NCBI GenBank assembly: GCA_934085565.1
Contig: CAKOHG010000003.1
Coordinates: 112,247-176,246 of the forward strand
Length of the DNA: 64,000 nt
Direction of reading: 5' to 3'
DNA from: an uncultured Bacilli bacterium
Lineage (GTDB): Bacteria; Bacillota_I; Bacilli_A; RF39; UBA660
Every line of letters starts with the position of its first letter. Position 1 is the stretch's first letter. The position numbers were made by a program, and so were the translations under genes. Shown piece by piece: positions 1 to 56,179 of this stretch. The notes under the pieces are model-generated. The model was not told the origin of the DNA. It was given only the letters and a program-made list of their open reading frames with translations, and ran no database searches.

Positions 1-522
1 AGTAGTAGTAAAAAAGGATCTTATAAGGGAGAAATTAAACTTGTTTCAGAAGAAGATGAAACCATAAAAGATGGAACAGAAATTGATGAGGATAATAATG
101 ATCGTGGACATTACGAAGACAAACCATTTAATCCAAGACAATTATGTGAAGAGGCTGAAAATTGTGATATAAGTCTTGCTAATTTTTGTACTTCTCCCAC
201 AGTAGCACGTACCTTTAAATTTTTAGGTTTATTATTCTATATAGCCAAAATACTAGTGCCAGGAATAATAATTGTCATGGGATTTGTTAATCTCTTTAAA
301 ATTATGACATCTGGTAAAACGGATGATGCCAAAAAATACGCAAAATCTATTATCATTCGTATTTTTGTGGGCATTGTTATTTTCTTGCTTCCAGGAATTA
401 TAAATACTATTTATGATGCTGCAAAATCAATAATTGGTTCAGGTGGTACCGGTGGTTTTGATAACTGTGCTACTTGTTTATTGGATCCAAATTCCGACAA
501 ATGTTATATTGAGGAAAATTAA
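1..522 (+). CDS. Secreted protein, 5'-truncated by the window edge; C-terminal VirB2/TrbC-like two-helix pilin module (paralog 0 of an array)
   Basis: C-terminal ~130 aa is about 80% identical to the C-terminus of the next gene. It has two hydrophobic helices separated by a KTDDAKKYAK loop and a CxxC...C tail, with a Cys pair before helix 1. Confidence 0.55.
   Translation, partial: SSSKKGSYKGEIKLVSEEDETIKDGTEIDEDNNDRGHYEDKPFNPRQLCEEAENCDISLANFCTSPTVARTFKFLGLLFYIAKILVPGIIIVMGFVNLFKIMTSGKTDDAKKYAKSIIIRIFVGIVIFLLPGIINTIYDAAKSIIGSGGTGGFDNCATCLLDPNSDKCYIEEN
140..522 (+). repeat. About 385-bp direct repeat, copy A (3' end of paralog 0), about 80% identical to 1782..2165
   Basis: By-eye alignment shows perfect runs such as TTGTTAATCTCTTTAA and ATTATGACATCTGGTAAAA shared by both copies. 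Confidence 0.6.
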
Positions 523-539
523 ATAAGGGGAGAATAAAA

Positions 540-2165
540 ATGTATAAAAAATTCAAACTATTCGTGATAATTAGTATTTCTGTTTTGTTTTTTAATGTGA
601 ATGTAAATGCCGCTGAAATTAGTAATACTTGTAAATACACATCACACAGTGGCTATAATACAGTTTATTTAGATATTTATGATGATAATACGGCTAAAGC
701 TTATGTAAAGTATTATTTAAAATCAACAGAAGGAAATGGTGAATTTTTCCCATATGATGACTTTGGCAAAAAAGCTAAAATTCAAAATTGGAACAAAAAT
801 GATACACAATATTCAAGTGAAAAATGTCCTTCATATGCCTTAGTAATGCCAACTTGGATAAATGGGTATAATACTTATTTTTCTGATTCTAAAAGTGATC
901 TTTCTACCACGCTTGGAAATAAAAAAGGATATGTGTTAGACAATGATAAATCTTTTGAGTCTTACGCTACTTGTGAGTATAAAGTTAAATATACTTCTAA
1001 CTCTTATATGAAATTTAAAATTGTTATTCGAGATAAAGATTATTCTAGACTTTATTATATGCAAAATATGGGAGATAATAAATATCAATATGTTAATGCT
1101 AATTTTTCTAAATTATTAAATTCACCAGCTTTATATTCTGGTTCAAATGTCTCAGAGGTTACTCAGATAAGTTCTCAAATTAATTCTGTAGAAGATATTT
1201 ATACGGCTTTTGAAGCAAATGGAAATAAATGTCCTTACATTATTTCAAAAAATGTTAAGGACCCAACTAATTTTACAATTGCTGTTTCAGCAGAATCTGT
1301 TCATGATGATGTAAATACTTTTTCTGCGTCTGCTATAGATGGTGGACAATATACCGAACAATCACCGGAACAAACAACTTTAACGAAAAGCTGTAAATCC
1401 CATTTTAATAAAAATGACATTCCGGCTTTAAATGGCGCAACATTTTTCTTTAATCAATATTCAGATGGAAAAAAAGAATTTTGTGCCAAAATAACGAATA
1501 TGTCTGAAGAACAATGTACAAATGTTTCTAAAATAAATAATTTTGGTTTGACTGTAACAACAAGATCAGAAAACTCTTATACATTTACGATTGATACTGA
1601 AACTTTTGATGATTTTTTCGGTGATAGTTGTATTGGTGATAAATTTTATATCGTAGAAGAAGCTGGAATTACTTCGGGATCTTATATTTTAACAACCAGT
1701 GAAGATAAAGCTAAAGAAGGAACGAATTATACTCAAGGAAAAGAGGGAGTCGACCTTGAAGATAAAGAATTTAATCCTTCTCAAATTTGTGAAGACGCTG
1801 AAAATTGTGATATTAGTTTAGATAATTTTTGTACAACTGGTAGTGTTGCTAGAACTTTTAAATTCTTAGGGCTATTATTTTATATTGCTAAGATATTGGT
1901 ACCAGGAATCATAATAGTGATGGGTTTTGTTAATCTCTTTAAGATTATGACATCTGGTAAAATGGATGACGCTAAAAAATATGCAAAATCTATCATCATT
2001 CGTATTTTTGTTGGGATTGCTATCTTTTTAATACCTGATATCATTCATACGATTTATAATAGTGCAAGTAACATTTTAGGTAATGGTGGTAGCGGTGGCT
2101 TTGACAATTGTGAGGCCTGTCTTATGCGTCCAACTTCAAAGGAATGCGTCATTGAAGAAAACTAG
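540..2165 (+). CDS. Secreted 541-aa protein: Sec signal peptide, 430-aa variable ectodomain, C-terminal VirB2/TrbC-like pilin module
   Basis: RBS GGGGAG; signal peptide ...NVNVNA|AE; C-terminal FLGLLFYIAKILVPGIIIVMGFVNLF - KIMTSGKMDDAKKYAK - IFVGIAIFLIPDII - GGSGGFDNCEACL...C. Confidence 0.6.
   Translation: MYKKFKLFVIISISVLFFNVNVNAAEISNTCKYTSHSGYNTVYLDIYDDNTAKAYVKYYLKSTEGNGEFFPYDDFGKKAKIQNWNKNDTQYSSEKCPSYALVMPTWINGYNTYFSDSKSDLSTTLGNKKGYVLDNDKSFESYATCEYKVKYTSNSYMKFKIVIRDKDYSRLYYMQNMGDNKYQYVNANFSKLLNSPALYSGSNVSEVTQISSQINSVEDIYTAFEANGNKCPYIISKNVKDPTNFTIAVSAESVHDDVNTFSASAIDGGQYTEQSPEQTTLTKSCKSHFNKNDIPALNGATFFFNQYSDGKKEFCAKITNMSEEQCTNVSKINNFGLTVTTRSENSYTFTIDTETFDDFFGDSCIGDKFYIVEEAGITSGSYILTTSEDKAKEGTNYTQGKEGVDLEDKEFNPSQICEDAENCDISLDNFCTTGSVARTFKFLGLLFYIAKILVPGIIIVMGFVNLFKIMTSGKMDDAKKYAKSIIIRIFVGIAIFLIPDIIHTIYNSASNILGNGGSGGFDNCEACLMRPTSKECVIEEN
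1782..2165 (+). repeat. About 385-bp direct repeat, copy B (3' end of gene 540..2165)
   Basis: As above. Confidence 0.6.
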
Positions 2166-2228
2166 AAAATACTAGTTTTTTTTCTTATAACTTGATATAA
2201 TTATTTTGTTGAAAAAGTGGGGCTTATT

Positions 2229-2774
2229 ATGAAAAATAAAATTAAGTATATTTTAATATTTATCATTAGTATTTCTATTATTTTTCCAAAATTGGTTTAT
2301 GCACAAAGCAATATAAATCAAAATAATATCTTGTTAATAAATGACGTTAATAAAAATATAAGTGATACTTTTATAACTTTAGATGCAGAAGTGAGTGATA
2401 CCACTGTTGGAGAAATTTGTAGTATGCCTCAATATCGTAAAACCATGCGCTTTTTTGGAACAATCGTTACGTTTGCTAAATATATTGTTCCTGTAGTAAT
2501 TATTGCTTTTGGAATAATGGATTTATATAAGGCTGTAGCAGGAGCTAAAGATGACGAGATAAAAAAATCATTTAAAGCTATTATGGTGAGAATAGCAGCG
2601 GGCGTTTTTATCTTTTTACTTCCAGGATTAGTACAGTTTTTCTTTAATATGTTAAATGAATGGAGCGATTACAAAGTTGATGTTTGTTGCTGTACCGAAT
2701 GTTTATTAAATTCAAGTTGTGATACGAATAGCTGCAGTAGTAGTTCTTGTAAAATAGAAGGGATGAATAATTAA
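2229..2774 (+). CDS. Secreted protein with C-terminal VirB2/TrbC-like pilin module (paralog); Cys-rich tail
   Basis: The ORF track starts at a GTG at 2217. The ATG at 2229 with an upstream AAGTGGGG is the likelier start. Signal peptide ...LVYA|QS; module TMRFFGTIVTFAKYIVPVVIIAFGIMDLYKAVAGAKDDEIKK...; tail CCCTEC...C...C. Confidence 0.55.
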   Translation: MKNKIKYILIFIISISIIFPKLVYAQSNINQNNILLINDVNKNISDTFITLDAEVSDTTVGEICSMPQYRKTMRFFGTIVTFAKYIVPVVIIAFGIMDLYKAVAGAKDDEIKKSFKAIMVRIAAGVFIFLLPGLVQFFFNMLNEWSDYKVDVCCCTECLLNSSCDTNSCSSSSCKIEGMNN

Positions 2775-3607
2775 TGAAAAAATCTTTGATGTTAATAATT
2801 GGATTGTTTATATTTAATTTGCCGATAGCTAATGCAGCTTATTATTATGTACTAGATAATGGTAATTATAATTTATGTGAAACAAGTATGCCTACTTGTA
2901 ACGAAGTCGATAAAGATGCTCCAGGGTTGACTGTTGATAATTCTGCTAAGGAAATCACTTATAATGGTGGATTCTATGAATTTAATTCAGATTATCAAGA
3001 TTATTATTATAGAACAACATACGGTCAAACTAGGATGTATTATTATATGTCTGGAGATAATTTTGTTTTGTGTAAAACGAAATCAAGTTGTCATACGTAT
3101 TCTCGAAATAAACTTGAGAATGCAGGAGCGATTATTTCTAATAGAAGTCAAGTAGAACTTTCTGAAGATGAAATTTATTATTACAACTCAACTTATGAAT
3201 CATCCTCTTCAAATAATAGTCAAAATAATAATTCTGATGGCTCAAATGCTGGTACCACGACGGGCACTAATAATACTCCTGCTACAGATGATGTAGGATA
3301 TTGTACCAAATTAAAAGCACCTTTAGAGTTTATTGGAAATATTGTATTGATTTTTAAAATAATTATTCCAATTATCATAATTATTTATGGAAGTGTTGAT
3401 TTCTTTCGTGCTATAACAGGAGCTAAAGATGATGAAATTAAAAAAGCAGCAAGATCACTTTTATTTAGAGTTTTAGCCGGTGTTGTTGTCTTTCTTCTTC
3501 CAACAATTGTTAGTTTTATTTTTACTTTAGTTAGTGATTTTGCTAATATTAAAGGATCTTTCAAATATTGTCAAAAATGTGTTTTTGATGTTCGAAATTG
3601 TAAGTAG
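2774..3607 (+). CDS. Secreted protein with S/N/T-rich linker and C-terminal VirB2/TrbC-like pilin module (paralog)
   Basis: Start overlaps the previous stop (TAATG). Signal peptide ...PIANA|AY; low-complexity SSSSNNSQNNNSDGSNAGTTTGTNNTP linker; module ...ITGAKDDEIKKAARS...; tail CQKCVFDVRNC. Confidence 0.55.
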   Translation: MKKSLMLIIGLFIFNLPIANAAYYYVLDNGNYNLCETSMPTCNEVDKDAPGLTVDNSAKEITYNGGFYEFNSDYQDYYYRTTYGQTRMYYYMSGDNFVLCKTKSSCHTYSRNKLENAGAIISNRSQVELSEDEIYYYNSTYESSSSNNSQNNNSDGSNAGTTTGTNNTPATDDVGYCTKLKAPLEFIGNIVLIFKIIIPIIIIIYGSVDFFRAITGAKDDEIKKAARSLLFRVLAGVVVFLLPTIVSFIFTLVSDFANIKGSFKYCQKCVFDVRNCK

Positions 3608-3612
3608 GTGAA

Positions 3613-4092
3613 ATGATGAAATTTAAATATATTACAGTTATTATCCTTAGTTTCTTTTTGGGATTAGGTTTTGCAAACGCAGAAGAAATTGTGCCATTAA
3701 AGAATGATATTGTACTTCTAGCAGGTGAAACTACTACAACAGCTGATACAACGACTAATAGTGGAACTACTAATTATTGTACTGGTTTACGTTCTACCTT
3801 TGTTTTTATCGGCCATTTAATTCGCCTTGCTAAAATTTTAATACCAATTATTGTTATCATTTTTGGAATGTTAGACTTTTTCAAAGCTGTAACAGGTTCT
3901 AAAGATGATGAAATCAAAAAAGCGGCAAAATCATTATTATTTAGAGCTCTTGCTGGGGTATGTATTTTCTTTTTACCAGCAATTATAGACTTTGTTTTCG
4001 GACTTGTTGATGGTTGGAGTAATAGTGAATATGAGTCTGGTTATCAAGATTGCTTTAAATGTGTTTGGGATGTTGGAAGTTGTACGAAATAA
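3613..4092 (+). CDS. Secreted protein with T-rich linker and C-terminal VirB2/TrbC-like pilin module (paralog)
   Basis: Signal peptide ...GFANA|EE; TTTTADTTTNSGTTNYC linker; module ...VTGSKDDEIKKAAKS...; tail CFKCVWDVGSC. Confidence 0.55.
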   Translation: MMKFKYITVIILSFFLGLGFANAEEIVPLKNDIVLLAGETTTTADTTTNSGTTNYCTGLRSTFVFIGHLIRLAKILIPIIVIIFGMLDFFKAVTGSKDDEIKKAAKSLLFRALAGVCIFFLPAIIDFVFGLVDGWSNSEYESGYQDCFKCVWDVGSCTK

Positions 4093-4120
4093 TGTAATTG
4101 TAAAAGGTTACATTTTTTTC

Positions 4121-4149
4121 TTGTTATAAAGTACTATTTCTAGTATAAT
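4121..4149 (+). promoter_or_regulatory. Sigma-A-type promoter TTGTTA-17-TATAAT upstream of gene 4175
   Basis: TTGTTA at 4121..4126 and TATAAT at 4144..4149 with a 17-nt spacer. A weak TGTAA/TTACA hairpin plus T7 run lies just upstream (about 4099..4118). Confidence 0.45.
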
Positions 4150-4174
4150 TTAAGATGAAAACGAGCGTGAAATT

Positions 4175-5197
4175 ATGAAAAAAAGGCTGTACATTTTACT
4201 TATTTTTGTTTGCTTATTTTGGAGTGTAAATGTCACTGCAGCGAGTTGTTCAAATGTAACTGAAAGCAGTGTAAAAACTTATTTTGCTACCAATGGCTAT
4301 TCTGGAGCAAAATATTGTAGTGGGGATAGAACTTTAGAAAATTCTGGATCTTTTCCACTTACGATTGCTTCTATATTAAAAAGTTACAATATGAATTATA
4401 TCCCAACAGATGTCTCTAAATATTTATGTGAGCATTACCAAGGAATGATAGAAGCTTCTAATTATAGTACCATTGTTAAAGCTAATGATGTTGAAGATGA
4501 GTTTAAAGTAAATATTGATAGAATAGAAAATACAATGACTGCTATTGATGAAACACTTGCAAATAAAAAGTCTGTTTTAGCTTCTATAAATAGCAGTAGC
4601 ATATTTGCTGACAATGCTAGTTTTATTGGTATTGTTATGAAAAAAAATGATCAATATTACATTATTAATACAGCTAGTCAAGATGAAAATAATACAAGTG
4701 GCTGGTATTCTAAAGATTCTCTAGAAGAAAATGTTTTGAATGCAATAGATACTGGTATGTGGTCAATTATTCCAAAAGATTGTGATAATAGTTCTGATAG
4801 TGTAGTTACAACAGCTGCTCAAACTGAGGGAGATCATAGTCCTTCTGAGGATCCTTATCCTGGAGCTGGACCAAATTTAGGTACAGACGATGAGGTGAAG
4901 TGTAATAAGATTTTTAAGAAAAATGGTAGTGATGAATTTAATGATCTCGGTCAATTTTTACAAAATGTGTTTTTAGGTATCAGACTTTTAGCGCCTGCTT
5001 TAGTTATTATTTTATCAACGATTGATTATATTAAAGCTATTGCTTCATCTAATCAAGATGATTTGAAAAAGGTAAATAAAAAAACAATAAAAAGAGTAGT
5101 TGCAGGTCTCATTATATTCTTTATTCCATTATTATTAGATATTCTATTCAAGTTATTTGGTATTTATGATTTATCAACTTGTGGAATAGGTAGTTAG
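4175..5197 (+). CDS. Secreted 340-aa protein with a divergent C-terminal VirB2/TrbC-like module (paralog)
   Basis: Signal peptide ...SVNVTA|AS; C-terminal LGIRLLAPALVIILSTIDYIKAIASSNQDDLKKVNKK...VAGLIIFFIPLLLDILF...STCG. It keeps the same two-helix plus D-D-x-K-K loop architecture. Confidence 0.5.
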   Translation: MKKRLYILLIFVCLFWSVNVTAASCSNVTESSVKTYFATNGYSGAKYCSGDRTLENSGSFPLTIASILKSYNMNYIPTDVSKYLCEHYQGMIEASNYSTIVKANDVEDEFKVNIDRIENTMTAIDETLANKKSVLASINSSSIFADNASFIGIVMKKNDQYYIINTASQDENNTSGWYSKDSLEENVLNAIDTGMWSIIPKDCDNSSDSVVTTAAQTEGDHSPSEDPYPGAGPNLGTDDEVKCNKIFKKNGSDEFNDLGQFLQNVFLGIRLLAPALVIILSTIDYIKAIASSNQDDLKKVNKKTIKRVVAGLIIFFIPLLLDILFKLFGIYDLSTCGIGS

Positions 5198-5211
5198 AAA
5201 AGGGTGATAGT

Positions 5212-7344
5212 ATGTTAAAAATGTTTTTGATAGCGGCTAATCCAGTTACTAGCTGGTTTAATAATCAAATGCATAGATTTTTATTATGGGTAGACCAATC
5301 TGTTTATTGGGCTGCCTCTCAATGCTATCAATTGTTTATGAAGTTAGCTACTGCTCAAATTTTTACAGATGATTTCTTCTCAAGTTTTGCTAAACGTATC
5401 TATGCCATCTTAGGTGTTTTTATGCTATTTTATTTGGTATATGCTTTATTAAACGCTATTGTAGATCCTGATAAATTAACAAACGATAAAGGAGCTGGCA
5501 AAATTGCTAAAAATTTAATTATATCTTTAGTTTTATTAGGACTTTTACCAAACCTTTTTGATTTGGCTTATCGTTTACAAAATTTTGTATTATCTTCTAA
5601 TTTACTCGGAGCTGTTATTTTGGGGTCAGATGTTATCGATGTTTCTGATTCAGAAGCAATAACTGAAAATAATGAAAGTTTAATTCGTTTTGGGGATTAT
5701 GCTTCTTTTACGGTTTTAAATGCCTTTTTAAATCCAGAAAATTTAAATCCAACTTTAGATGGTGGCTATAACTGGTATGGTGTTAAAAAGGAAATTTTAG
5801 AAGAGGGTAAATGGAAAAATTTACCATTGTTATCAGATGCGGTCTCTAATGGAACATCTATTGGAGGAGAAAATATTGTTTTGACGTATCGTCCTATTGT
5901 TTCAACAGCAGCCGGTGTTTTCTTAATTTATATGTTACTATCTTTCACTTTAGATTTAGGTGTTCGAGTAGTTAAATTTGCTTTTTATCAATTATTGGCA
6001 CCTATACCAATAGTTTTAAGGATTCTTCCTAGTAAAAAAGGAACTTTTGATAAATGGCTAAAGCAAACATTAAGTGTTTATTTTGAGGTATTCGTTCGTG
6101 TTGGTTTAATGTATATTGCCATTTACTTTATTAATGCTATTACGACAAATAATACATTAATGGAGATGTGGACAGAAAGTACTTCTGGAAAACTAGCTTT
6201 GGCGATTATCATTATTGGTGTGTTTGCATTTGCTAAACAAGCGCCTAAAATTATCAGTGATGTTCTTGGAATTGATACTGGAGGTCTTAAACTTGGCATT
6301 GGTGAAAAACTTAAAGCAGGCGGTTTCTTTGGTGCCGGAGCAATGTTGGGAGCAGGTGCTACCGGATTAGTTAGAAATGGAATCAATGGAGTTGGTAACG
6401 TTTTTAATAGTGGAAGATCAGCTGCTAATAGTTTTCGTAATGGTGAATTTAAAAATGGATTTAAAAATGTTGGTAAAGCAATGTTTGGCGTAGGTGCTGG
6501 GATTGGTTCAACTATTGCAGGTACAACATCAGGTATATATAATGCTTATGGAAGTGGTAAAAAGGCTGGAAATTTCAAGGATATGGTAAAAGCAGCCGGA
6601 GAAGGAGCTAAAAAAAGTTTGGATAATAGAGTTAAAAGAGCCAACTATATAGCTACTAATAATGGCATGCTTGGAAGTGCTAAAGCTAAAGCCATCGATA
6701 CATTAGGTGTAGCTAAAGAATGGGCAACAGGAACACCATTGAACAATTTCTTATCTCGTGTAAAATTTAAAGAAGATTTTTATAAAGAATTTGACGAATA
6801 TAAAACATTGTACGAAAACCCAGAATACAATGCTATGGACGCACAATTAAATCACTTACAAGCCTTAAAAGCACAAGGTGCAACTGTAACTGAAGATGGA
6901 ACACAAATAGATACAGCCATTGACACAATGAAAAATGCTATGACAAACAAACGACTTACGGCTATTAACAAGAATCCAAATGCTGCAGCTTATATAGCCT
7001 ATAATATGGCAAAATTTGCTAAAGACAATTTTAATCTTTATAAATCTCCTGACGTCGACTTTGATTTTAATGGTGCGAATATAGAAGATTTTATTTTGAA
7101 AGGTGATACAGTATACCATCAAGATGGTAAAGAATGGTCTAAAGAAGAACTAATGAAATTATATGAAAATGCAAATGCAGGTGATTATGCAATTGATACT
7201 AAAGGAAATGTTAATATTACGACTAGTTACGATTCAAAAGGAAGTATGAAATCACAAATTGGCGCAAGCAAAGTAGCCTTAAAATCGGCAAAACAAACAC
7301 CTGCTTATAAAGAAGCAGCAAAAAAAGAAGCAGCAAAAAAATAA
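5212..7344 (+). CDS. VirB6/TrbL-like polytopic membrane protein (T4SS channel component) with Gly-rich segment and Lys/Ala-rich C-terminal domain
   Basis: 710 aa with at least 6 predicted TM helices, GGFFGAGAMLGAGATGL glycine zipper and a long soluble tail. Its size and position next to VirB3/VirB4 match TcpH / Tn916 Orf15-type proteins. Confidence 0.5.
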   Translation: MLKMFLIAANPVTSWFNNQMHRFLLWVDQSVYWAASQCYQLFMKLATAQIFTDDFFSSFAKRIYAILGVFMLFYLVYALLNAIVDPDKLTNDKGAGKIAKNLIISLVLLGLLPNLFDLAYRLQNFVLSSNLLGAVILGSDVIDVSDSEAITENNESLIRFGDYASFTVLNAFLNPENLNPTLDGGYNWYGVKKEILEEGKWKNLPLLSDAVSNGTSIGGENIVLTYRPIVSTAAGVFLIYMLLSFTLDLGVRVVKFAFYQLLAPIPIVLRILPSKKGTFDKWLKQTLSVYFEVFVRVGLMYIAIYFINAITTNNTLMEMWTESTSGKLALAIIIIGVFAFAKQAPKIISDVLGIDTGGLKLGIGEKLKAGGFFGAGAMLGAGATGLVRNGINGVGNVFNSGRSAANSFRNGEFKNGFKNVGKAMFGVGAGIGSTIAGTTSGIYNAYGSGKKAGNFKDMVKAAGEGAKKSLDNRVKRANYIATNNGMLGSAKAKAIDTLGVAKEWATGTPLNNFLSRVKFKEDFYKEFDEYKTLYENPEYNAMDAQLNHLQALKAQGATVTEDGTQIDTAIDTMKNAMTNKRLTAINKNPNAAAYIAYNMAKFAKDNFNLYKSPDVDFDFNGANIEDFILKGDTVYHQDGKEWSKEELMKLYENANAGDYAIDTKGNVNITTSYDSKGSMKSQIGASKVALKSAKQTPAYKEAAKKEAAKK

Positions 7345-7364
7345 TAGAAAAGGGGTAAATTTAA

Positions 7365-7673
7365 ATGAATCAATATTTAATACCTGCCAACACAAAGAAG
7401 TCAAAACTTATTCTTGGCTTCTTTACTTGGATTGATTTAGCAATATTTGGTACAGGTTGTGGTATTACATTACTACTTTTGTTAATTTTCCAAGGCATGG
7501 ATTTTACAACAGCTATCATTGTATTACTGCCTGCTTTGATATCGGGATTTTTAGTTATCCCGGTACCAAATTATCATAATGTTTTACAACTTATTACTAA
7601 TATTGTGACATTTATGTTGGGAAGAAAAAGGTATTATTGGAAAGGCTGGTGTATTAAAGATGGCGAAAAATAA
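7365..7673 (+). CDS. VirB3-like small two-TM membrane protein
   Basis: 102 aa with two hydrophobic helices (LILGFFTWIDLAIFGTGCGITLLLLLIF / TAIIVLLPALISGFLVIPV). It lies immediately 5' of VirB4 and overlaps it by 14 nt. Confidence 0.4.
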   Translation: MNQYLIPANTKKSKLILGFFTWIDLAIFGTGCGITLLLLLIFQGMDFTTAIIVLLPALISGFLVIPVPNYHNVLQLITNIVTFMLGRKRYYWKGWCIKDGEK

Positions 7674-8229
7674 AAAAGAAGAAATAGCAAGTAAATGGAG
7701 TGAAGATTGGGTACCTCTTAAAAATATCATGAACGGTATGATTCAACTTGAAAACGGAGAATATGTAACAGGAGTTAAAATTGCTCCTAAAAATATCTTT
7801 ATTTTAGATGCAGGAACAAGAGATAATGTGATTTATCAATTAAGAAATTTTTATAATTCTATTAATTTTGAATTCTGGCTTGTTGTTGCAGATCGTCCGG
7901 TAGATATTAATGTTTATTTATCCCAATTACAAATTCAATTTAATCGAGCTAATAATGCGATTACTCGTAAACTTGTTCAAGAAGATATTAACAAAGCTAA
8001 TATGTTTATGAGTGCAGAATATAACGTAGTAGATACCGAATATTATATTTTATTTAAAGAAAAGAAAATGGATGTCATTCAAAAAAGATTACATACTTTA
8101 ATAAGCAATTTAGCAAACTGTGGCTTAAATAGTCAACAAACAAGTAATAATGATTTAAGAGTTATTTTAGATAATTTCTTTAATGGTGGGGCAGCCACGA
8201 ATTTTAGTGGGATGGTAGGTGTACGATGA
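7660..8229 (+). CDS. VirB4-family N-terminal domain, encoded as a separate ORF
   Basis: LKNIMNGMIQLENGEYVTGVKIAPKNIFILD resembles the N-terminal motif of Gram-positive VirB4 homologues (Tn916 Orf16 / TcpF / PrgJ class). It ends in an ATGA overlap with the next ORF. Confidence 0.5.
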   Translation: MAKNKKEEIASKWSEDWVPLKNIMNGMIQLENGEYVTGVKIAPKNIFILDAGTRDNVIYQLRNFYNSINFEFWLVVADRPVDINVYLSQLQIQFNRANNAITRKLVQEDINKANMFMSAEYNVVDTEYYILFKEKKMDVIQKRLHTLISNLANCGLNSQQTSNNDLRVILDNFFNGGAATNFSGMVGVR

Positions 8230-16091: not shown

Positions 16092-17804
16092 ATGACAAAT
16101 AAAACACGTTTTATTTTAGCAGGAATTGTTCTGCTCATTCTTATAAACACGCTTTTTTTTGCTTTAGGTTATTATTTTTATTTACATCCTATTTTAGGTG
16201 ACTTTGAAATTTTAAATATGGCTTATAGTAATGAAAATTTAACGTTATCTTTATCTAAAGCAAATAATGCGATAAGTTATACAGCCTCCATTTATCAAAA
16301 TAATGAAAAAATTTACGAAGAAAAAAGTAAAGATGAAACAATTATTTTACAAAATTTTGAACCAGATTATAATGAAAAATATCAAGTAAGTGTCATAGCT
16401 CAAGATAAAAATGCCAAAGAAAAAGTGAATTCTAATCAATTTGTCTATCAAAATAAACTACCTTCTTTAAAAAAAGAGAGTAATCGTTATTTGCTTTCTG
16501 GACATGATCTTTCTTTAGAGGTTTTAGGGTTTCAAGAAAATCAAAATTTATCTTTAGAAATTTATGCCGATAAAGAAAAAATATATGAAAAAGAAGTTTT
16601 AGAAAAGGATATTACCATTCCATCTTCTGTTTTCTCATCTTATATGGGTAGAGTTGTTGTTTATTTGAAAAAAGATGGTCACCATGTTTTAAGTACCATT
16701 AATTATTACTTAAATACGCCTATTGTAGGAAAACTTAAAACAACGACACCACTTGAAATAACTACACGTTATGATGATGTGACTTTAGATATCTCTGGTG
16801 GGGAAAATGCTAACCATTTTTATGCTTTATTTTATGAACAAGGTGTTCTTTCTAATACGGTAGAAGTTTCTAAATTTAATAATCAAATTTTTTTACCGGC
16901 TAGTCTTTTTATGGAAAATAAAGATTATTTAATTCAGATTAAAGCTGTTTATGAAGATTACTTTGAAATTGGTGAGGTTTTAGATTTTAATGTTCATATG
17001 GGGAAGAAAGAAACAACTTCTGCGGTTTATGTTAGTCATAATCCTAATTATATTAAGAATAATACTTTTGTATCTTTTAAAACAATCACGGAGGGTGCCA
17101 CGATTCACTATACTACGAATGGGGAAGATCCAACCATTAATAGTCCTATTTTAAAAGATAGTCTTTTGATTAATCAAAATATGACAATTAAAGTGTTGGC
17201 AACAAGTCGTAACCGTTATGATTCGCCAATAGAAACTTATCAGTTTAATATTGCCGAGAAAACGCCTGTTATCTTTTTAAGTCCATCTAATCAAAATGAA
17301 AACTATGGAGCTTCTAATACGGGTTACACTAATGAAATGGATATGATGAATAAAGTAGCGGATGTCGTAGAAGAAGTTTTAAAACAAAATGGTCTTATTG
17401 TATACCGAAATAATCCGAGAACCGATATCAATGCTTGGACAGCCACATCAAATTATGTTAAAGCAGATTTTCATTTTGCCATTCACTCAAATGCTTCTGG
17501 GAATCACAATGTCCGTGGTATTGAAATGTTTATTGATGATGAAACTTCTCCTTCTTTTGCCATTGCTTCTAATATTTATGAAAACTTATGGCAAATCTAT
17601 GATGGTAAAGATAACAAAGATTATAAAAGAGGTATTAAGTATGCGAGAGGTTCTTTAGGAGAAGCTAATGATGATTTTGTAAGATGTGGTAGCCTTATTG
17701 AAATTGCTTATCATGATGAAGTACATGATGCCTTATGGGTGGTTAATCACGTAAGAGAAATCGGAGAAAACCTTGCACAATCCATTATTTCTTATTATAA
17801 TTAA
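16092..17804 (+). CDS. N-acetylmuramoyl-L-alanine amidase (Amidase_3) with N-terminal TM and Fn3/chitobiase-like middle domain
   Basis: C-terminal ADFHFAIHSNASGNHNVRGIEMFID ... GSLIEIAYHD, typical of MurNAc-LAA. GATIHYTTNGEDPT matches a chitobiase/Fn3-like repeat. Confidence 0.65.
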   Translation: MTNKTRFILAGIVLLILINTLFFALGYYFYLHPILGDFEILNMAYSNENLTLSLSKANNAISYTASIYQNNEKIYEEKSKDETIILQNFEPDYNEKYQVSVIAQDKNAKEKVNSNQFVYQNKLPSLKKESNRYLLSGHDLSLEVLGFQENQNLSLEIYADKEKIYEKEVLEKDITIPSSVFSSYMGRVVVYLKKDGHHVLSTINYYLNTPIVGKLKTTTPLEITTRYDDVTLDISGGENANHFYALFYEQGVLSNTVEVSKFNNQIFLPASLFMENKDYLIQIKAVYEDYFEIGEVLDFNVHMGKKETTSAVYVSHNPNYIKNNTFVSFKTITEGATIHYTTNGEDPTINSPILKDSLLINQNMTIKVLATSRNRYDSPIETYQFNIAEKTPVIFLSPSNQNENYGASNTGYTNEMDMMNKVADVVEEVLKQNGLIVYRNNPRTDINAWTATSNYVKADFHFAIHSNASGNHNVRGIEMFIDDETSPSFAIASNIYENLWQIYDGKDNKDYKRGIKYARGSLGEANDDFVRCGSLIEIAYHDEVHDALWVVNHVREIGENLAQSIISYYN

Positions 17805-49232: not shown

Positions 49233-52200
49233 ATGAAAAGGTCAAAAGAGTTTAAAAGAAAAGTTAATGGTTTTACGTTAATTGAACTTATAAGTGTTGT
49301 TAGTATTATGGCGATTATTTTATTAATCGCTATTCCAGCTTATACGACGATTACAAATAAGACTAAAGAAAATATTTATCAATCTAAAGTAACAGAACTT
49401 CTTGCTAAAGCTGAAAGTTATTCAGAAACTTCAAATGTTTTTGTTATGGATGTTAATACTTTAATGCAACAAGGTCTTATTAGTGCCGATAATGAATCCG
49501 GAAATCTAATCGATCCTAGATCAGATCGTAAGATGAATTGTGATATTATTGAAGTGAATTACGAAGGAAATACTTATAAAGCTAATTATATTGAAAATGA
49601 TACTTGTTTAGGAGAAGAAGAACTCAATAACCGTTATGGTATGGGTTATATTACGATTTATGATGAAAATGGTAATGAAGTATCTAATAATACATGGTCA
49701 CAAACAGCCTTTGAAAATTTTCAATTTCGTTTAAAAAATGAAAGTAATTTAGAAAATTTAGTTAGTTTAACTTGGAATGGGGAAGAAGAAAAAACTTGTA
49801 CCAAAGAGGAGTATGATGATTGTCTTTATCAAATAAGTGCCCAACTTATCAAAAATATAACAGTTACTTTAAATGTTGTTATGAATATTAACGGCCAAGA
49901 AGTTAATCAAAAATATAGTGCTCATGGTTTAATAGACCGTGAAAAACCGACAGTTTCAGTAGATGATGTAAATAATGAAAATTATACAACTGATTTAAGA
50001 AAAGTTAGTTTTGTTTTAGATGATAGATCTGGTAGTGGTATTTCTCATTATGCTGTGGTAAGTGATGATATCACATCTTGTGATAATGATGGAATTGTAT
50101 ATCAATCTACTGAAGATGTTCATCCAACAGTTTATCTGGATAATGGCGATTATATTGTTTGTGCAAAAGATAAGGTAGGAAATATTTCTGATATAGATGA
50201 CAAAAGTAAAGTTCATGTTGAAAAAGTTAATTCAAATAACTTTAAAATAAAAGTAACAAATAGTTCTAATAGTAATTGGACAAATAAAGATGTTACTTTA
50301 GCGGTTAGTTGGGATATTGAAAACATTGATTTTTGTGCTTATAAGTTAAATGACGGGGAATATCAACGTTATAATGGTGTTTATGATAGCAAAGGCTTTA
50401 CCTTTAAACCAAATTTTACAGGTGAACAAAAAACAACAGTATATTTTATGTGTTATGATAAAGCCGGTAATAAAAGTAATGAAGCTAACACAAGTGTTTT
50501 AATAGATACCAACAATCCAACGATAACTTATAGTATTCAAAATCAAACAGTTGGAAGCAATAGCTATTATAAAGGCTTAACTTTAAAAGCTGATGTTAAA
50601 GATAATTTGAGTGGTATATCTTCTATTAAATATTGTCAGGGAGAAAGTGATTGTACACCTGAAACAACGGCAACTGGTAGTTTCAGTGTCACTTTAGCCA
50701 GTGGAAAAAATCGTAAAGTTTGTGCTATTGTTGTAGATAAGGCTGGCAATTCTTCTGGAAAAGTTTGTTCATCTTCTTACAATGTCGATGGAGTAAAGCC
50801 AACAATTAGTTTAACTGAAAGTAGTACATCAGGAGAAAATGGCTGGGTTAAAAAAGCTACCATAACAGGTTCTTTAAATGATACCGTAAGTGGACTAGCT
50901 AGTGCTAAATATTGTCGAAGTAGTGCAAATTGTACACCTGATACGACAGTTTCTATTTCTAATAATCAAATCGTGGTGGATATTACCAATGCTTCTAATC
51001 AAAAAGTTTGTATGAATGTCACGGATAAAGCTGGAAATACTTCTAATACGGCTTGTAGTAAAAATTATTATGCTGACAATACGCTTCCAACTGTATCTAT
51101 TGATGTTTCTGCTTCTAATGGAAATGCAACAGTTACGGCAAGCAATGCCAAGGATAATTTAAGTGGGGTAGTAAGTTATCAATTCCGCTTTGATAATGGT
51201 AGTTGGATAACGAATTCTTCTAATAAATATACTTTCACAAACTTAACAGATGGTAATCATACATTTTATGTCAGGGTAAAAGATAAAGCCGGAAATTATA
51301 GTTCAGCTCCATCAAAAGTAGTAACTATTTCTAATGGACCTAGTCTTACTCGTATAGGAGACTTTATATCCAAAAATGCTTCTAGCAATGATAATATGAG
51401 AAATAATTATAATCTTGTACCACTTAATCAATCACAAATTGTAATTATTGATGGTGATGAAGTTTATTATGACAATGGAAAGCCTAAAAATACTTATTAT
51501 CTTGAAGCACAAGTGTTAAATGTTACTTCAAAAAGTTCTTCTTATGGTTCTATTGTAAAATTAATGAGTGAAGGAGCACCTCTTCCTGAATATAACGTTC
51601 GAGTGGATAATTCAACAATTGTTGTTGGAGGGGATGCCAATACAAGAGGTGGATCTGTTCGGGTAGCAACTCTTAAAATAAGTGGTAATTCTATTACAAT
51701 GCCTTATATTAGTTCTACTTTTGGTTCAGCTGGTTTTGAACGAGAAGGTATTGTGGGAATTTCTCATAGTCTTAACAGTGGAACAGTAGGAGTTTATTAT
51801 GACGATTCTACTTCAAGTAAACATAATTATGCTGTTAGAAGTTATACTTATACATCAGGTGGTATTAGCTCTGAAAGTAAATTATCAAGAAATGTCAATG
51901 ACATATACTATTATTTCCATGATATTTATGGCGCTGCTGGTTCCGTTTCTACAAGCCAAGGAACTTATGCTAGACAAAAAGTTTTTGATTATGCTGGTTT
52001 CTTTAATGGAACAGGAATTGTAAGATGTGATGATAATAGTATTTATCAAGATACTCAATGTAATAATAAGAAAGCGGAAAATAAAATTATTGATGTTGGA
52101 AATTATAGCAAATATTTAGGCAGTAATACCCAACAGGCTTATTTTTCTATGACAGCTTTAGGAAATGATAAAATTATTTTAACTATAAAAAATAAAACTT

Positions 52201-52418
52201 ACGATAGAAATAGCAAGACAACAACTTTAACAGGACACCTTTTGTTTTATAAAAAAGAAAATGGTAGTTGGAATTTAAAGAAAGAACTTAATGCTCCTGA
52301 AAATGGAGTTACTTATTCTAATTCTAGGTATTTATCCAATGAAGTATTACTTCCATTAACAACAAATGCCGCTTTATATAATTCTTATGCGGGTCTTTAT
52401 TACATTACTTTCTCTTAG
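49233..52418 (+). CDS. Giant (1061 aa) type IV pilin-like protein with prepilin (class III) signal and five tandem Ig-like repeats
   Basis: N-terminus KVNG|FTLIELISVVSIMAIILLIAIPA is the canonical prepilin-peptidase site (G|FTLIE with Glu at +5). Five repeats of about 95 aa each end in D-K-A/V-G-N-x-S. Ser/Gly/Tyr-rich C-terminus. Confidence 0.7.
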   Translation: MKRSKEFKRKVNGFTLIELISVVSIMAIILLIAIPAYTTITNKTKENIYQSKVTELLAKAESYSETSNVFVMDVNTLMQQGLISADNESGNLIDPRSDRKMNCDIIEVNYEGNTYKANYIENDTCLGEEELNNRYGMGYITIYDENGNEVSNNTWSQTAFENFQFRLKNESNLENLVSLTWNGEEEKTCTKEEYDDCLYQISAQLIKNITVTLNVVMNINGQEVNQKYSAHGLIDREKPTVSVDDVNNENYTTDLRKVSFVLDDRSGSGISHYAVVSDDITSCDNDGIVYQSTEDVHPTVYLDNGDYIVCAKDKVGNISDIDDKSKVHVEKVNSNNFKIKVTNSSNSNWTNKDVTLAVSWDIENIDFCAYKLNDGEYQRYNGVYDSKGFTFKPNFTGEQKTTVYFMCYDKAGNKSNEANTSVLIDTNNPTITYSIQNQTVGSNSYYKGLTLKADVKDNLSGISSIKYCQGESDCTPETTATGSFSVTLASGKNRKVCAIVVDKAGNSSGKVCSSSYNVDGVKPTISLTESSTSGENGWVKKATITGSLNDTVSGLASAKYCRSSANCTPDTTVSISNNQIVVDITNASNQKVCMNVTDKAGNTSNTACSKNYYADNTLPTVSIDVSASNGNATVTASNAKDNLSGVVSYQFRFDNGSWITNSSNKYTFTNLTDGNHTFYVRVKDKAGNYSSAPSKVVTISNGPSLTRIGDFISKNASSNDNMRNNYNLVPLNQSQIVIIDGDEVYYDNGKPKNTYYLEAQVLNVTSKSSSYGSIVKLMSEGAPLPEYNVRVDNSTIVVGGDANTRGGSVRVATLKISGNSITMPYISSTFGSAGFEREGIVGISHSLNSGTVGVYYDDSTSSKHNYAVRSYTYTSGGISSESKLSRNVNDIYYYFHDIYGAAGSVSTSQGTYARQKVFDYAGFFNGTGIVRCDDNSIYQDTQCNNKKAENKIIDVGNYSKYLGSNTQQAYFSMTALGNDKIILTIKNKTYDRNSKTTTLTGHLLFYKKENGSWNLKKELNAPENGVTYSNSRYLSNEVLLPLTTNAALYNSYAGLYYITFS
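50150..51350 (+). repeat. Five tandem ~285-nt intragenic repeats encoding Ig-like domains (signature CxxDKAGNxS)
   Basis: Motif occurrences at about 50161, 50455, 50733, 51020 and 51280, with about 285-nt periodicity. Confidence 0.5.
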
Positions 52419-55007: not shown

Positions 55008-56179
55008 TAAGTGTCCGATTGGGGCATAAAAAAAGACACATAGAATTACCTATGATACAATGTAAGTGCGAACTAACATTGGAGGTAATGAACTATGTGT
55101 CTTTTAAATTATAACAAAAAAGCGAAGAAATATAAACATATAACCTACTCTGAAAGAACTATGATAGAAACTTGGTATAATTCGGATAAAAAGAGTAAAA
55201 AAGAAATAGCAGAATTATTACATAAAAGCGAAAGGACAATTAGAAGAGAAATAAATCGTGGACTAATTACGATTAGAAATTATGATTGGACAGAGGGTAT
55301 AGAATATAGTGCAAGGGTAGCCCAAGATAAATATGAATATGGTATGACAAGTAAAGGTCCAGCGTTAAAATTAGATCAAGATATAAAATTGGTGGAACAT
55401 ATTGAAAATGAAATACTATGTAATAAAAAGTCACCTGAGGTAGTAGCTATACAGTTGAAGGATAATGGTTTTGATATAAAAATAAGTGGAAAGACCATAA
55501 GAAATGCAATAAAAAGCGGCTTAATATTTGAAAAAATACAAAATGGGAAAATAATATATAAAAAGGAATACAATAACAAGAATAAGGAAAAACGAGTATC
55601 TAAAATGATACCAGCTGAGAAAAGTATTGAACATAGACCAAAAGAAGCGAATACAAGGAAAGAATATGGGCATTGGGAAGGAGATTTAGTTGTAGGTAAG
55701 CAAGGAACCAAAGTGGTTTTATTTACATTAACAGAAAGAAAAACCAGACAGGAAATAATAATGAAACTTCCAAATAAAGAAACGAAGACAATAGCAAAAG
55801 CAATTGATAAAATAGAAAGAAGATATCAAGGGAAGTTTTATGAAGTTTTTAAAAGTATAACATTTGATAATGGAGTTGAATTCATGGGATTTGAGGGCAT
55901 AGAAAAATCCTGCTTGAGGAAAAAGAATAGAACAGAAGTATATTATGCTCATCCTTATTGTTCTGGTGAGAGAGGAACAAATGAAAATAATAATAGATTA
56001 ATAAGAAGATGGATTCCAAAAGGAACAGATATAACGAATATAAAAGTATCATTTATAAAGCAAATTGAAGATTGGATAAATAACTATCCAAGATTAATAT
56101 TTGGATATAAAAGTTCAAATATGTTATTATTAGAAATATAGATTAGCACTTATGAGGTAATTCAATGTGCGGACACTTA
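55008..56179 (+). mobile_element. IS30-family insertion sequence (about 1.17 kb) with imperfect terminal inverted repeats
   Basis: Left end TAAGTGTCCG...GAATTACCT...TAAGTGCGAACTAA; right end (reverse complement) TAAGTGTCCG-cacatt-GAATTACCT-ca-TAAGTGCTAAT. It encloses a single DDE transposase. Confidence 0.7.
55095..56141 (+). CDS. IS30-family DDE transposase
   Basis: N-terminal HTH (KKEIAELLHKSERTIRREINRG); catalytic core HWEGDLVVGKQG...ITFDNGVEF...ERGTNENNNRLIRRWIPKGTD (D, D(35)E spacing of the IS30/rve fold). Confidence 0.85.
   Translation: MCLLNYNKKAKKYKHITYSERTMIETWYNSDKKSKKEIAELLHKSERTIRREINRGLITIRNYDWTEGIEYSARVAQDKYEYGMTSKGPALKLDQDIKLVEHIENEILCNKKSPEVVAIQLKDNGFDIKISGKTIRNAIKSGLIFEKIQNGKIIYKKEYNNKNKEKRVSKMIPAEKSIEHRPKEANTRKEYGHWEGDLVVGKQGTKVVLFTLTERKTRQEIIMKLPNKETKTIAKAIDKIERRYQGKFYEVFKSITFDNGVEFMGFEGIEKSCLRKKNRTEVYYAHPYCSGERGTNENNNRLIRRWIPKGTDITNIKVSFIKQIEDWINNYPRLIFGYKSSNMLLLEI

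Follow-up and report, generated by a model that had tools for sequence, protein, structure and literature searches.

In Agrobacterium VirB2 (the T-pilin) and in TrbC of RP4, the mature pilin is a hairpin of two helices that exposes both of its termini outside the membrane and turns through a short charged loop in the cytoplasm; it is encoded in a VirB-type operon and closed by head-to-tail peptide cyclization. Here we analyzed an array of six tandem, co-directional open reading frames (ORFs) occupying positions 1-5197, on the plus strand, of a 64,000-nucleotide stretch from an uncultured Bacilli bacterium (contig CAKOHG010000003.1; the whole stretch is referred to as the window), in which the C-terminal part of each product is a two-transmembrane-helix hairpin for which the same layout is predicted. 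Cysteines cluster at both ends of these hairpins, and we consider, with moderate confidence, that their conservation is best explained by a disulfide bond joining the N-side end to the C-side end. The covalent joining of the ends proposed here would be a further likeness to the T-pilin and TrbC; however, the bond would be a disulfide rather than a peptide bond and, while the cyclized pilins have no free N-terminus, the N-terminus here often carries a large domain. The host is also of the Gram-positive type, unlike those of the T-pilin and TrbC, and no sequence or fold match to those pilins was found.

VirB2-like pilins of the Gram-positive type have been recognized only recently, in 2025 papers on Patescibacteria (the candidate phyla radiation, CPR; PMC12102498 and PMC12857230) and in a December 2025 preprint on PrgF (bioRxiv 10.64898/2025.12.18.695078). 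PrgF of the Enterococcus plasmid pCF10 is an essential VirB2-like protein that was proposed to polymerize on a VirB6 pentamer, and the same preprint summarizes the accepted VirB2 topology, in which both ends are outside. Like the hairpins described here, PrgF has two transmembrane segments with a charged loop, and its gene immediately precedes the VirB6-, VirB3- and VirB4-like genes of a monoderm type IV secretion system (T4SS). Unlike them, it has no passenger domain and is the one candidate per plasmid used for pilus modeling, with no paralog array (bioRxiv 10.64898/2025.12.18.695078). PrgF has 75 amino acids (aa) and no cysteine, and hhalign comparison of our family profile with it gave no similarity (probability 1%). 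The proposed staple is therefore specific to the present clade and is not general to VirB2-like proteins of Gram-positive bacteria.

Patescibacteria have 2-11 divergent VirB2-like genes (PF18895 or PF04956) arrayed beside virB4 (PMC12102498; PMC12857230, citing Wang et al., 2023), and these loci are chromosomal, mostly without a relaxase, with a T4SS backbone related to the monoderm class. The present locus looks like a counterpart of these arrays in gut Bacilli. It differs in its hosts, which belong to another phylum and are uncultured gut Bacilli with SpoIVA, penicillin-binding protein (PBP) and MraY genes, and in having pilin paralogs fused to hydrolases, of which the available text of those papers makes no mention. 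The hairpin core aligns both to Pfam PF18895 and to NCBIfam NF045849 (Mbov_0395 family pilin-like conjugal transfer protein), although the scores of the window proteins fall short of the curated cut-offs. However, the PF18895 model (71 positions) covers the hairpin alone; in the third complete gene of the array, for example, the match comprises aa 185-249, while the conserved cysteines 177 and 266 fall outside it. In a limited literature search, we found no paper describing conserved cysteines or a disulfide clasp in this pilin family.

Cysteines at the two ends of the hairpin

The six genes share a C-terminal module of approximately 105 residues, comprising a long hydrophobic helix, a loop (SKDDEIKK..K....R) and a second hydrophobic helix. 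The first, P0 (1-522), is the 3′ part of a pilin-like gene whose 5′ end is cut by the window start, with its module at ~133-519. P1 (540-2165) encodes a signal peptide (aa 1-24), an N-domain of ~390 aa and a hairpin module at 1776-2162; P2 (2217-2774) a signal peptide, a short N-region and a module at 2406-2771; P3 (2774-3607) a signal peptide, an N-domain of ~150 aa and a module at 3290-3604; and P4 (3613-4092) a signal peptide, a Thr-rich linker and a module at 3766-4089. P5 (4175-5197), the last of the array, encodes a signal peptide, a degenerate Peptidase_C39_2-like N-domain and a module at 4889-5194. All six genes stop at TAA or TAG, and the cysteine tails described below are therefore independent of the genetic code. 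An alternative code was considered and rejected, as these genes stop at TAA/TAG and TGA serves as a stop elsewhere.

We located each cysteine relative to the two helices. On the N-side of helix 1 there are three in P0 (C49, C55 and C63; codons 145-189) and in P1 (C417, C423 and C431; 1788-1832), and one each in P2 (C68; 2418-2420), P3 (C177; 3302-3304), P4 (C56; 3778-3780) and P5 (C243; 4901-4903). The tail after helix 2 has three cysteines in P0 (C156-x-x-C159...C168; 466-504), P1 (C524xxC527...C536; 2109-2147), P3 (C266xxC269...C276; 3569-3601) and P4 (C147xxC150...C157; 4051-4083), seven in P2 (C157, C158, C159xxC162, C168, C173 and C178, that is, CCCTEC...C...C...C; 2685-2750) and one in P5 (C336, in STCG; 5180-5182). 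The N-side/C-side counts are thus 3/3, 3/3, 1/7, 1/3, 1/3 and 1/1 from P0 to P5; P4 has in addition C117 within helix 2, and the numbers of cysteines in the N-domains are even (8 in P1, 4 in P3 and 4 in P5). In the other ORFs of the window cysteine makes up 1.04% of residues, and the clustering at the hairpin ends is far beyond chance. Translation of the six ORFs, with codons checked singly, reproduced all of the peptides quoted in an earlier sequence-only reading of this DNA, including a cysteine before helix 1 in every paralog. That reading had also placed a CxxC motif after helix 2 in every paralog; this holds, together with a further cysteine, for five of the six, while P5 has the single tail cysteine of the STCG peptide that it had itself listed.

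Two other roles for the motifs were rejected. Heme attachment would involve CxxCH, and the CxxC motifs here are not followed by His. The residues preceding the N-side cysteines do not fit a lipobox, and a site for Sec-type cleavage is already present in the long forms.

The cysteines are kept in other genomes, contrary to the outcome by which the sequence-only reading would have failed. At E ≤ 1e-3, a search with P4 returned 135 homologues, every one of them from a gut metagenome or metagenome-assembled genome (MAG), and a module alignment of 19 sequences contained 8 invariant columns, including the pre-helix cysteine and the first tail cysteine. A profile search covering 1.84 billion cluster representatives (50%-identity clusters) put the size of the family at 10,076 representatives with E ≤ 1e-3, of which 5,049 also passed E ≤ 1e-10. 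Among the 145 best new representatives, alignment columns 9, 98, 101 and 108 were cysteine in 98, 100, 99 and 79%, respectively, which is comparable to the conservation of R64, F72 and P75 of the hairpin core, although this top-ranked set is biased toward cysteine because the query profile contains the cysteine columns.

A sample less biased in this way was obtained from 78 related loci, taken as one genome per species and seeded on the loop motif; of the matches, the 80 most similar by tblastn to the complete P4 module, including its cysteine flanks, were retained, and further modules in each locus were added by a profile scan (E ≤ 1e-3). Almost all of the loci are labeled as gut MAGs, assigned to uncultured Bacilli, 'Tenericutes', Anaeroplasma, Ca. 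Coprovivens, Ca. Ventrenecus or Erysipelotrichaceae, with a few labeled otherwise (Muribaculaceae, one Phocaeicola vulgatus and one Mycoplasma sp.). Each locus has 2-8 tandem module genes, 281 modules in total, and 277 of these have a cysteine no more than 25 residues ahead of helix 1. The tail count is odd in 276, being 1 in 65 modules, 3 in 184, 5 in 3 and 7 in 24, and is 0 in the remaining 5; the 1+7 pattern of P2 recurs in 24 modules. Two main types can be recognized. The CxxC or A type has one N-side cysteine and a CxxC...C tail, and includes short forms (~105-130 aa) without a signal peptide that open each array. The B type, to which P5 belongs, has a signal peptide, one N-side cysteine and a C-terminus ending ...TCGIG, and is the last in the array, beside the VirB6-like gene.

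Several metagenomic homologues (P0021, P0023, P0041, P0031 and P0032) are chimeric, with a P4-like N-terminal half and a P2-like C-terminal half or the reverse, and with the junction exactly at the conserved loop GAKDDEIKK. These may be either true recombinants between paralogs or assembly artefacts at the repeated loop sequence.

Parity, paired loss and register of the cysteines

When cysteines were counted in 270 proteins, the N-side number was odd in 251, the C-side number in 263 and both in 245, with 20 distinct odd/odd patterns (e.g., 1/3, 5/3, 7/3, 3/3, 9/3, 1/7, 1/5 and 1/1). The signal peptide was removed by a crude rule for this count, and on inspection many of the exceptions look like errors of that rule. 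Provided that every cysteine is paired, odd numbers on both sides require at least one bond from the N-side to the C-side.

Losses of cysteines point to which residues may be partners. A single tail cysteine is found in P5 of the window and in the database sequences P0254, P0182, P0119 and P0032, the last four of which look independent of one another. In all five, column 98 is kept and columns 101 and 108 are lost together, which would be expected if the bonds are 9-98 and 101-108. Gain and loss are also coupled across the membrane hairpin: all 65 B-type modules with one tail cysteine have exactly one on the N-side, whereas the five modules without a tail cysteine have either none (L019 and L037) or two (L014, L017 and L020) on the N-side, never one (Fisher p = 8e-8, a value that is uncorrected for phylogeny and reflects at least two events). 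As the sequences are related, the parity and loss counts overstate the number of independent events. Parity and paired gain or loss favor the disulfide between the two ends that the sequence-only reading had proposed, and specifically suggest one N-side-to-C-side bond.

Alternatively, the four cysteines (N-side, CxxC and last) might hold a structural metal such as Zn2+ and so clamp the ends in the reducing gut with no disulfide at all. CxxC with two more cysteines is a classic four-ligand set, and such a site would suit both the gut habitat, presumably anaerobic, and the outcome of the motif screen described below, in which nothing Dsb-like turned up close to the locus. However, only two cysteines are present in the 65 B-type modules and in five derived lineages of the CxxC type, fewer than a Cys4 site takes; totals of 6 and 8 also occur; no conserved His or Asp co-ligand stands beside the motif; and metal binding does not predict gains and losses that are strictly paired, including changes from 1/1 to 0/0 or 2/0. 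We therefore regard a metal site as quite improbable.

The spacing of the cysteines bears on whether an N-to-C disulfide would form within one chain. In the CxxC type, the N-side cysteine precedes the conserved Pro of helix 1 by 22-24 residues and the first tail cysteine follows the conserved Pro of helix 2 by a median of 23 residues, which places the N-side and C-side cysteines in register. The N-linker of the B type is longer (median 29) but its C-linker is correspondingly shorter (median 18), and the two linkers add up to 46 in the A type and 47 in the B type. Another possibility is that the same cysteines bond neighboring subunits, the N-side of one pilin to the tail of the next, and thereby cross-link a polymer. 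Parity and paired loss would be satisfied equally well by such bonds, and in solved VirB2 pili both termini are exposed on the outer surface, where neighbors would be within reach (bioRxiv 10.64898/2025.12.18.695078). On the other hand, each paralog balances its own N-side and C-side counts even though the arrays mix 1+1, 1+3, 3+3 and 1+7 patterns, for which partners in the same chain are the simplest account, and spacing in register across a single hairpin favors an intramolecular bond. Neither of these points is decisive, but they lead us to consider bonds between subunits unlikely, and an intramolecular bond is assumed in the mechanism proposed below.

Topology and the proposed clasp

Canonical Sec signal peptides are present at the start of P1-P5 (for example, MMKFKYITVIILSFFLGLGFANA followed by EE), and together with the exported N-domains they indicate that helix 1 begins outside the membrane. 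The K/R-rich loop between the helices fits the positive-inside rule, which puts the tail outside as well. The extracytoplasmic location of both cysteine clusters, deduced from the signal peptides and the loop charge, is thus well supported, as the sequence-only reading had anticipated. In the alignment, the helices are conserved around P27 and P71 (numbering of the P4 module) and the loop SKDDEIKK..K....R is conserved between them, while an AlphaFold2 (AF2) model of the P4 module (predicted local distance difference test, pLDDT, 77.6) has helices at 4-43 and 47-84 followed by a short helix at 90-101 that bears the CxxC.

We propose that each protein would be exported by Sec, with the short relatives that have no signal peptide inserting directly, and that the C-terminal hairpin would come to span the membrane, leaving its two ends outside and the loop SKDDEIKK..K....R in the cytoplasm. 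Outside the cell, the cysteine before helix 1 would bond the first cysteine after helix 2 (columns 9-98), giving C56-C147 in P4, C177-C266 in P3 and C243-C336 in P5. In the CxxC type, the second cysteine of the motif would bond the last cysteine (columns 101-108; C150-C157 in P4) and close an 8-residue loop, and the extra cysteines of P0, P1, P2 and the N-domains would form further pairs. The clasp may turn the hairpin into a covalently closed ring, in which the two helices are held in register, and may protect the exposed ends as VirB4 and VirB6 pull the subunit from the membrane. It would also leave the N-terminus free for a passenger domain, which head-to-tail cyclization does not. A disulfide that stabilizes an exposed subunit end is known from type IV (T4P) pilins, where it is conserved in the D-region; however, the fold and assembly of those pilins are unrelated, and their bond lies inside a globular head and not across a membrane hairpin.

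Apart from the bias of the top-ranked representatives and the relatedness of the counted sequences noted above, several observations weigh against this interpretation. Four relatives (P0051, P0052, P0053 and P0155) have no N-side cysteine yet have three tail cysteines, and the confidence of the AF2 model is only 60-70 over the P4 tail. A motif screen of the 64-kb window and the 78 loci (~1.1 Mb) found no ORF for an extracytoplasmic thioredoxin/DsbA-like CxxC protein, returning only cytoplasmic thioredoxin-reductase-like CATC motifs. The hosts, represented by gut MAGs, are presumably anaerobes, and Firmicutes are said to tend to avoid cysteines in exported proteins (a tendency reportedly described by Daniels and colleagues in 2010). 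In addition, fold searches recovered no solved conjugative pilin.

The passenger domains are of interest in this context. The large N-domains that precede the hairpin in P1, P3 and P5 argue against cyclization, unless they are cleaved off, and to view the staple as standing in place of cyclization would be a reasonable analogy. Orthologues of P5 among the B-type proteins have Peptidase_C39_2 (L008:10387-11487; the best match, 39.2 bits, E = 1.3e-9), Amidase_3 (L024:5387-6724 and L027:11340-12575) or Peptidase_M15_4 (L014:10396-12237) ahead of the hairpin, which fits the earlier suggestion that a clasp of this kind would tolerate an attached N-terminal domain. In the N-domain of P5 itself (4175-4888), Ser stands at the Cys position of the SGC[FM]P motif (SGSFP versus SGCFP) and the His of HY[VI] is absent; as these two residues are the putative catalytic pair, the C39-like domain of P5 is probably inactive. 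If the proposed bond exists, it would represent a second, chemically different closure of a conjugative-type pilin beside the peptide cyclization of the T-pilin and TrbC, and would explain how such pilins keep N-terminal passenger domains. It would also provide a signature for annotation, C...hairpin...CxxC...C or C...hairpin...TCGIG, that extends outside the boundaries of the current Pfam model.

The modules of P0 (133-519) and P1 (1776-2162) are 79% identical in amino acids and 75% in nucleotides, while their N-domains are apparently different, and at L003 two neighboring paralogs (5102-6283 and 6350-7630) have by eye essentially the same module with different N-domains. This suggests module duplication or gene conversion with swapping of N-domains.

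Pilin identity and the surrounding genes

Five of the six window proteins match PF18895 (T4SS_pilin) below its cut-off of 26.6 bits, with scores of 15.7-24.7 bits (E from 2.4e-5 to 0.016), including P0 (24.7 bits, E = 2.4e-5), P1 (E = 0.0098), P2 (E = 0.001) and P3 (E = 0.0026); P4 itself had no match to this model in the Pfam scan. PF18895 was matched at E ≤ 1e-3 by 51 of 98 aligned homologues (best E = 1e-7), one of the homologues matches T4SS_CagC, and several P4 homologues carry precomputed PF18895.6 matches. The sub-threshold scores in the window and the matches of the homologues suggest a divergent branch linked to the family by transitive homology. A profile search against PDB sequences gave only spurious matches to segments TM5-TM6 of G-protein-coupled receptors, a likeness that explains weak 'Frizzled' matches in Pfam.

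The genes directly 3′ of the array, all on the plus strand, encode a VirB6/TrbL-like polytopic membrane protein (5212-7344; PF04610 TrbL, E = 2.5e-4, with weak MMCAP2_0566 and pLS20_p028 matches), a small PrgI/VirB3-like membrane protein (7365-7673; PF12666, E = 0.0063), which aligns with the N-terminal end of the Mbov_0397 VirB4 model, and a VirB4-like ATPase (7660-10010) in two overlapping ORFs, 7660-8229 (189 aa) and 8226-10010 (594 aa), matching NF045975 at E = 5e-16 and 1.2e-100, respectively. The split of VirB4 is also found in L001, L003, L021 and L047 and is thus not a sequencing error. A single protein combines the VirB3 and VirB4 parts in the Mycoplasma integrative and conjugative element (NF045975 model, 894 positions). 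The order array-VirB6-VirB3-VirB4 is repeated in related loci. A hairpin of the PF18895 type with adjoining VirB6-, VirB3- and VirB4-like genes points to the VirB2-like pilin hairpin of a T4SS of the Gram-positive type, and the pilin-like identity of the module, already suggested by the sequence-only reading, is well supported by these sequence relationships.

The module may nevertheless have a different role, as a permanent membrane anchor that presents exported enzymes or adhesin-like domains at the T4SS and makes no pilus, in which case the clasp would only stabilize the anchor. Most paralogs have large N-domains, of a size that looks awkward in a pilus shaft; the last paralog has orthologues bearing domains of the peptidoglycan-hydrolase type, a task of membrane-anchored VirB1-like enzymes in other Gram-positive T4SSs; and fold searches gave no specific pilin match. 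However, the arrays open with a short paralog free of any passenger (126 aa in L001 and L003, 104-115 aa in two-gene arrays), which fits one major pilin with minor ones; the module is homologous to PF18895; and divergent arrays of VirB2-like genes beside virB4 are known in Patescibacteria (PMC12102498). We consider an anchor role possible but doubtful; it concerns what the module does and is compatible with a disulfide staple.

Megablast of window positions 1-12000 against plasmids gave no match. The Pfam scan downstream covered 24 of the 47 ORFs of at least 120 aa that lie wholly 3′ of the T4SS genes, and no relaxase or VirD4 was found among these 24; a relaxase may be encoded among the other ORFs. 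Apart from one IS-like ORF with an integrase core, the scanned genes are housekeeping genes, including those for a CDP-alcohol phosphatidyltransferase, FtsK with its gamma domain, a MiaB-like protein, RadC, a PBP with a PASTA domain, MraY, RecD2, VanY and DinB. A probable Suf cluster at ~19.6-22.7 kb, outside the Pfam scan, was read by eye. The array of L003, a close relative, is immediately preceded by genes for pyruvate kinase and SpoIVA. The T4SS locus sits among core chromosomal genes, and its layout resembles that of the relaxase-less chromosomal T4SSs of Patescibacteria. One may speculate that the locus encodes such a Patescibacteria-like T4SS with a mixed pilus of a short major pilin and minor pilins, the subunits locked by N-to-C disulfides instead of cyclization and the minor pilins bearing passenger domains, including peptidoglycan hydrolases, on their free N-termini, and that such a device would breach or tap neighboring cells rather than conjugate DNA; taken as a whole, this picture is a long shot.

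Other genes of the window and of the related loci may be mentioned. A family of ~165-185 aa proteins, which have a hydrophobic stretch at the N-terminus (MKEAIGGAWIYLIVLVF...) and in most cases two cysteines, is encoded just upstream of many arrays (e.g., L043:7679-8224 and L043:8247-8801), with similar ORFs in 34 loci and no Pfam match; the counterpart region of our locus falls beyond the 5′ end of the window. The only mobile-element gene noticed in the window is an ORF at 55095-56141 with HTH_38 and an integrase core (rve), probably an IS30-type transposase. A 1061-aa protein encoded at 49233-52418 has a type IV pilin N-terminal methylation motif (PF07963), Ig-like domains and 18 cysteines, and may be another exported, possibly disulfide-rich surface protein. 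Finally, 6 kb 3′ of VirB4, positions 16092-17804 encode an exported protein of 570 aa with Amidase_3 and Fn3-associated/CHB_HEX_C domains, which could be a separate cell-wall hydrolase of the T4SS or an ordinary autolysin.

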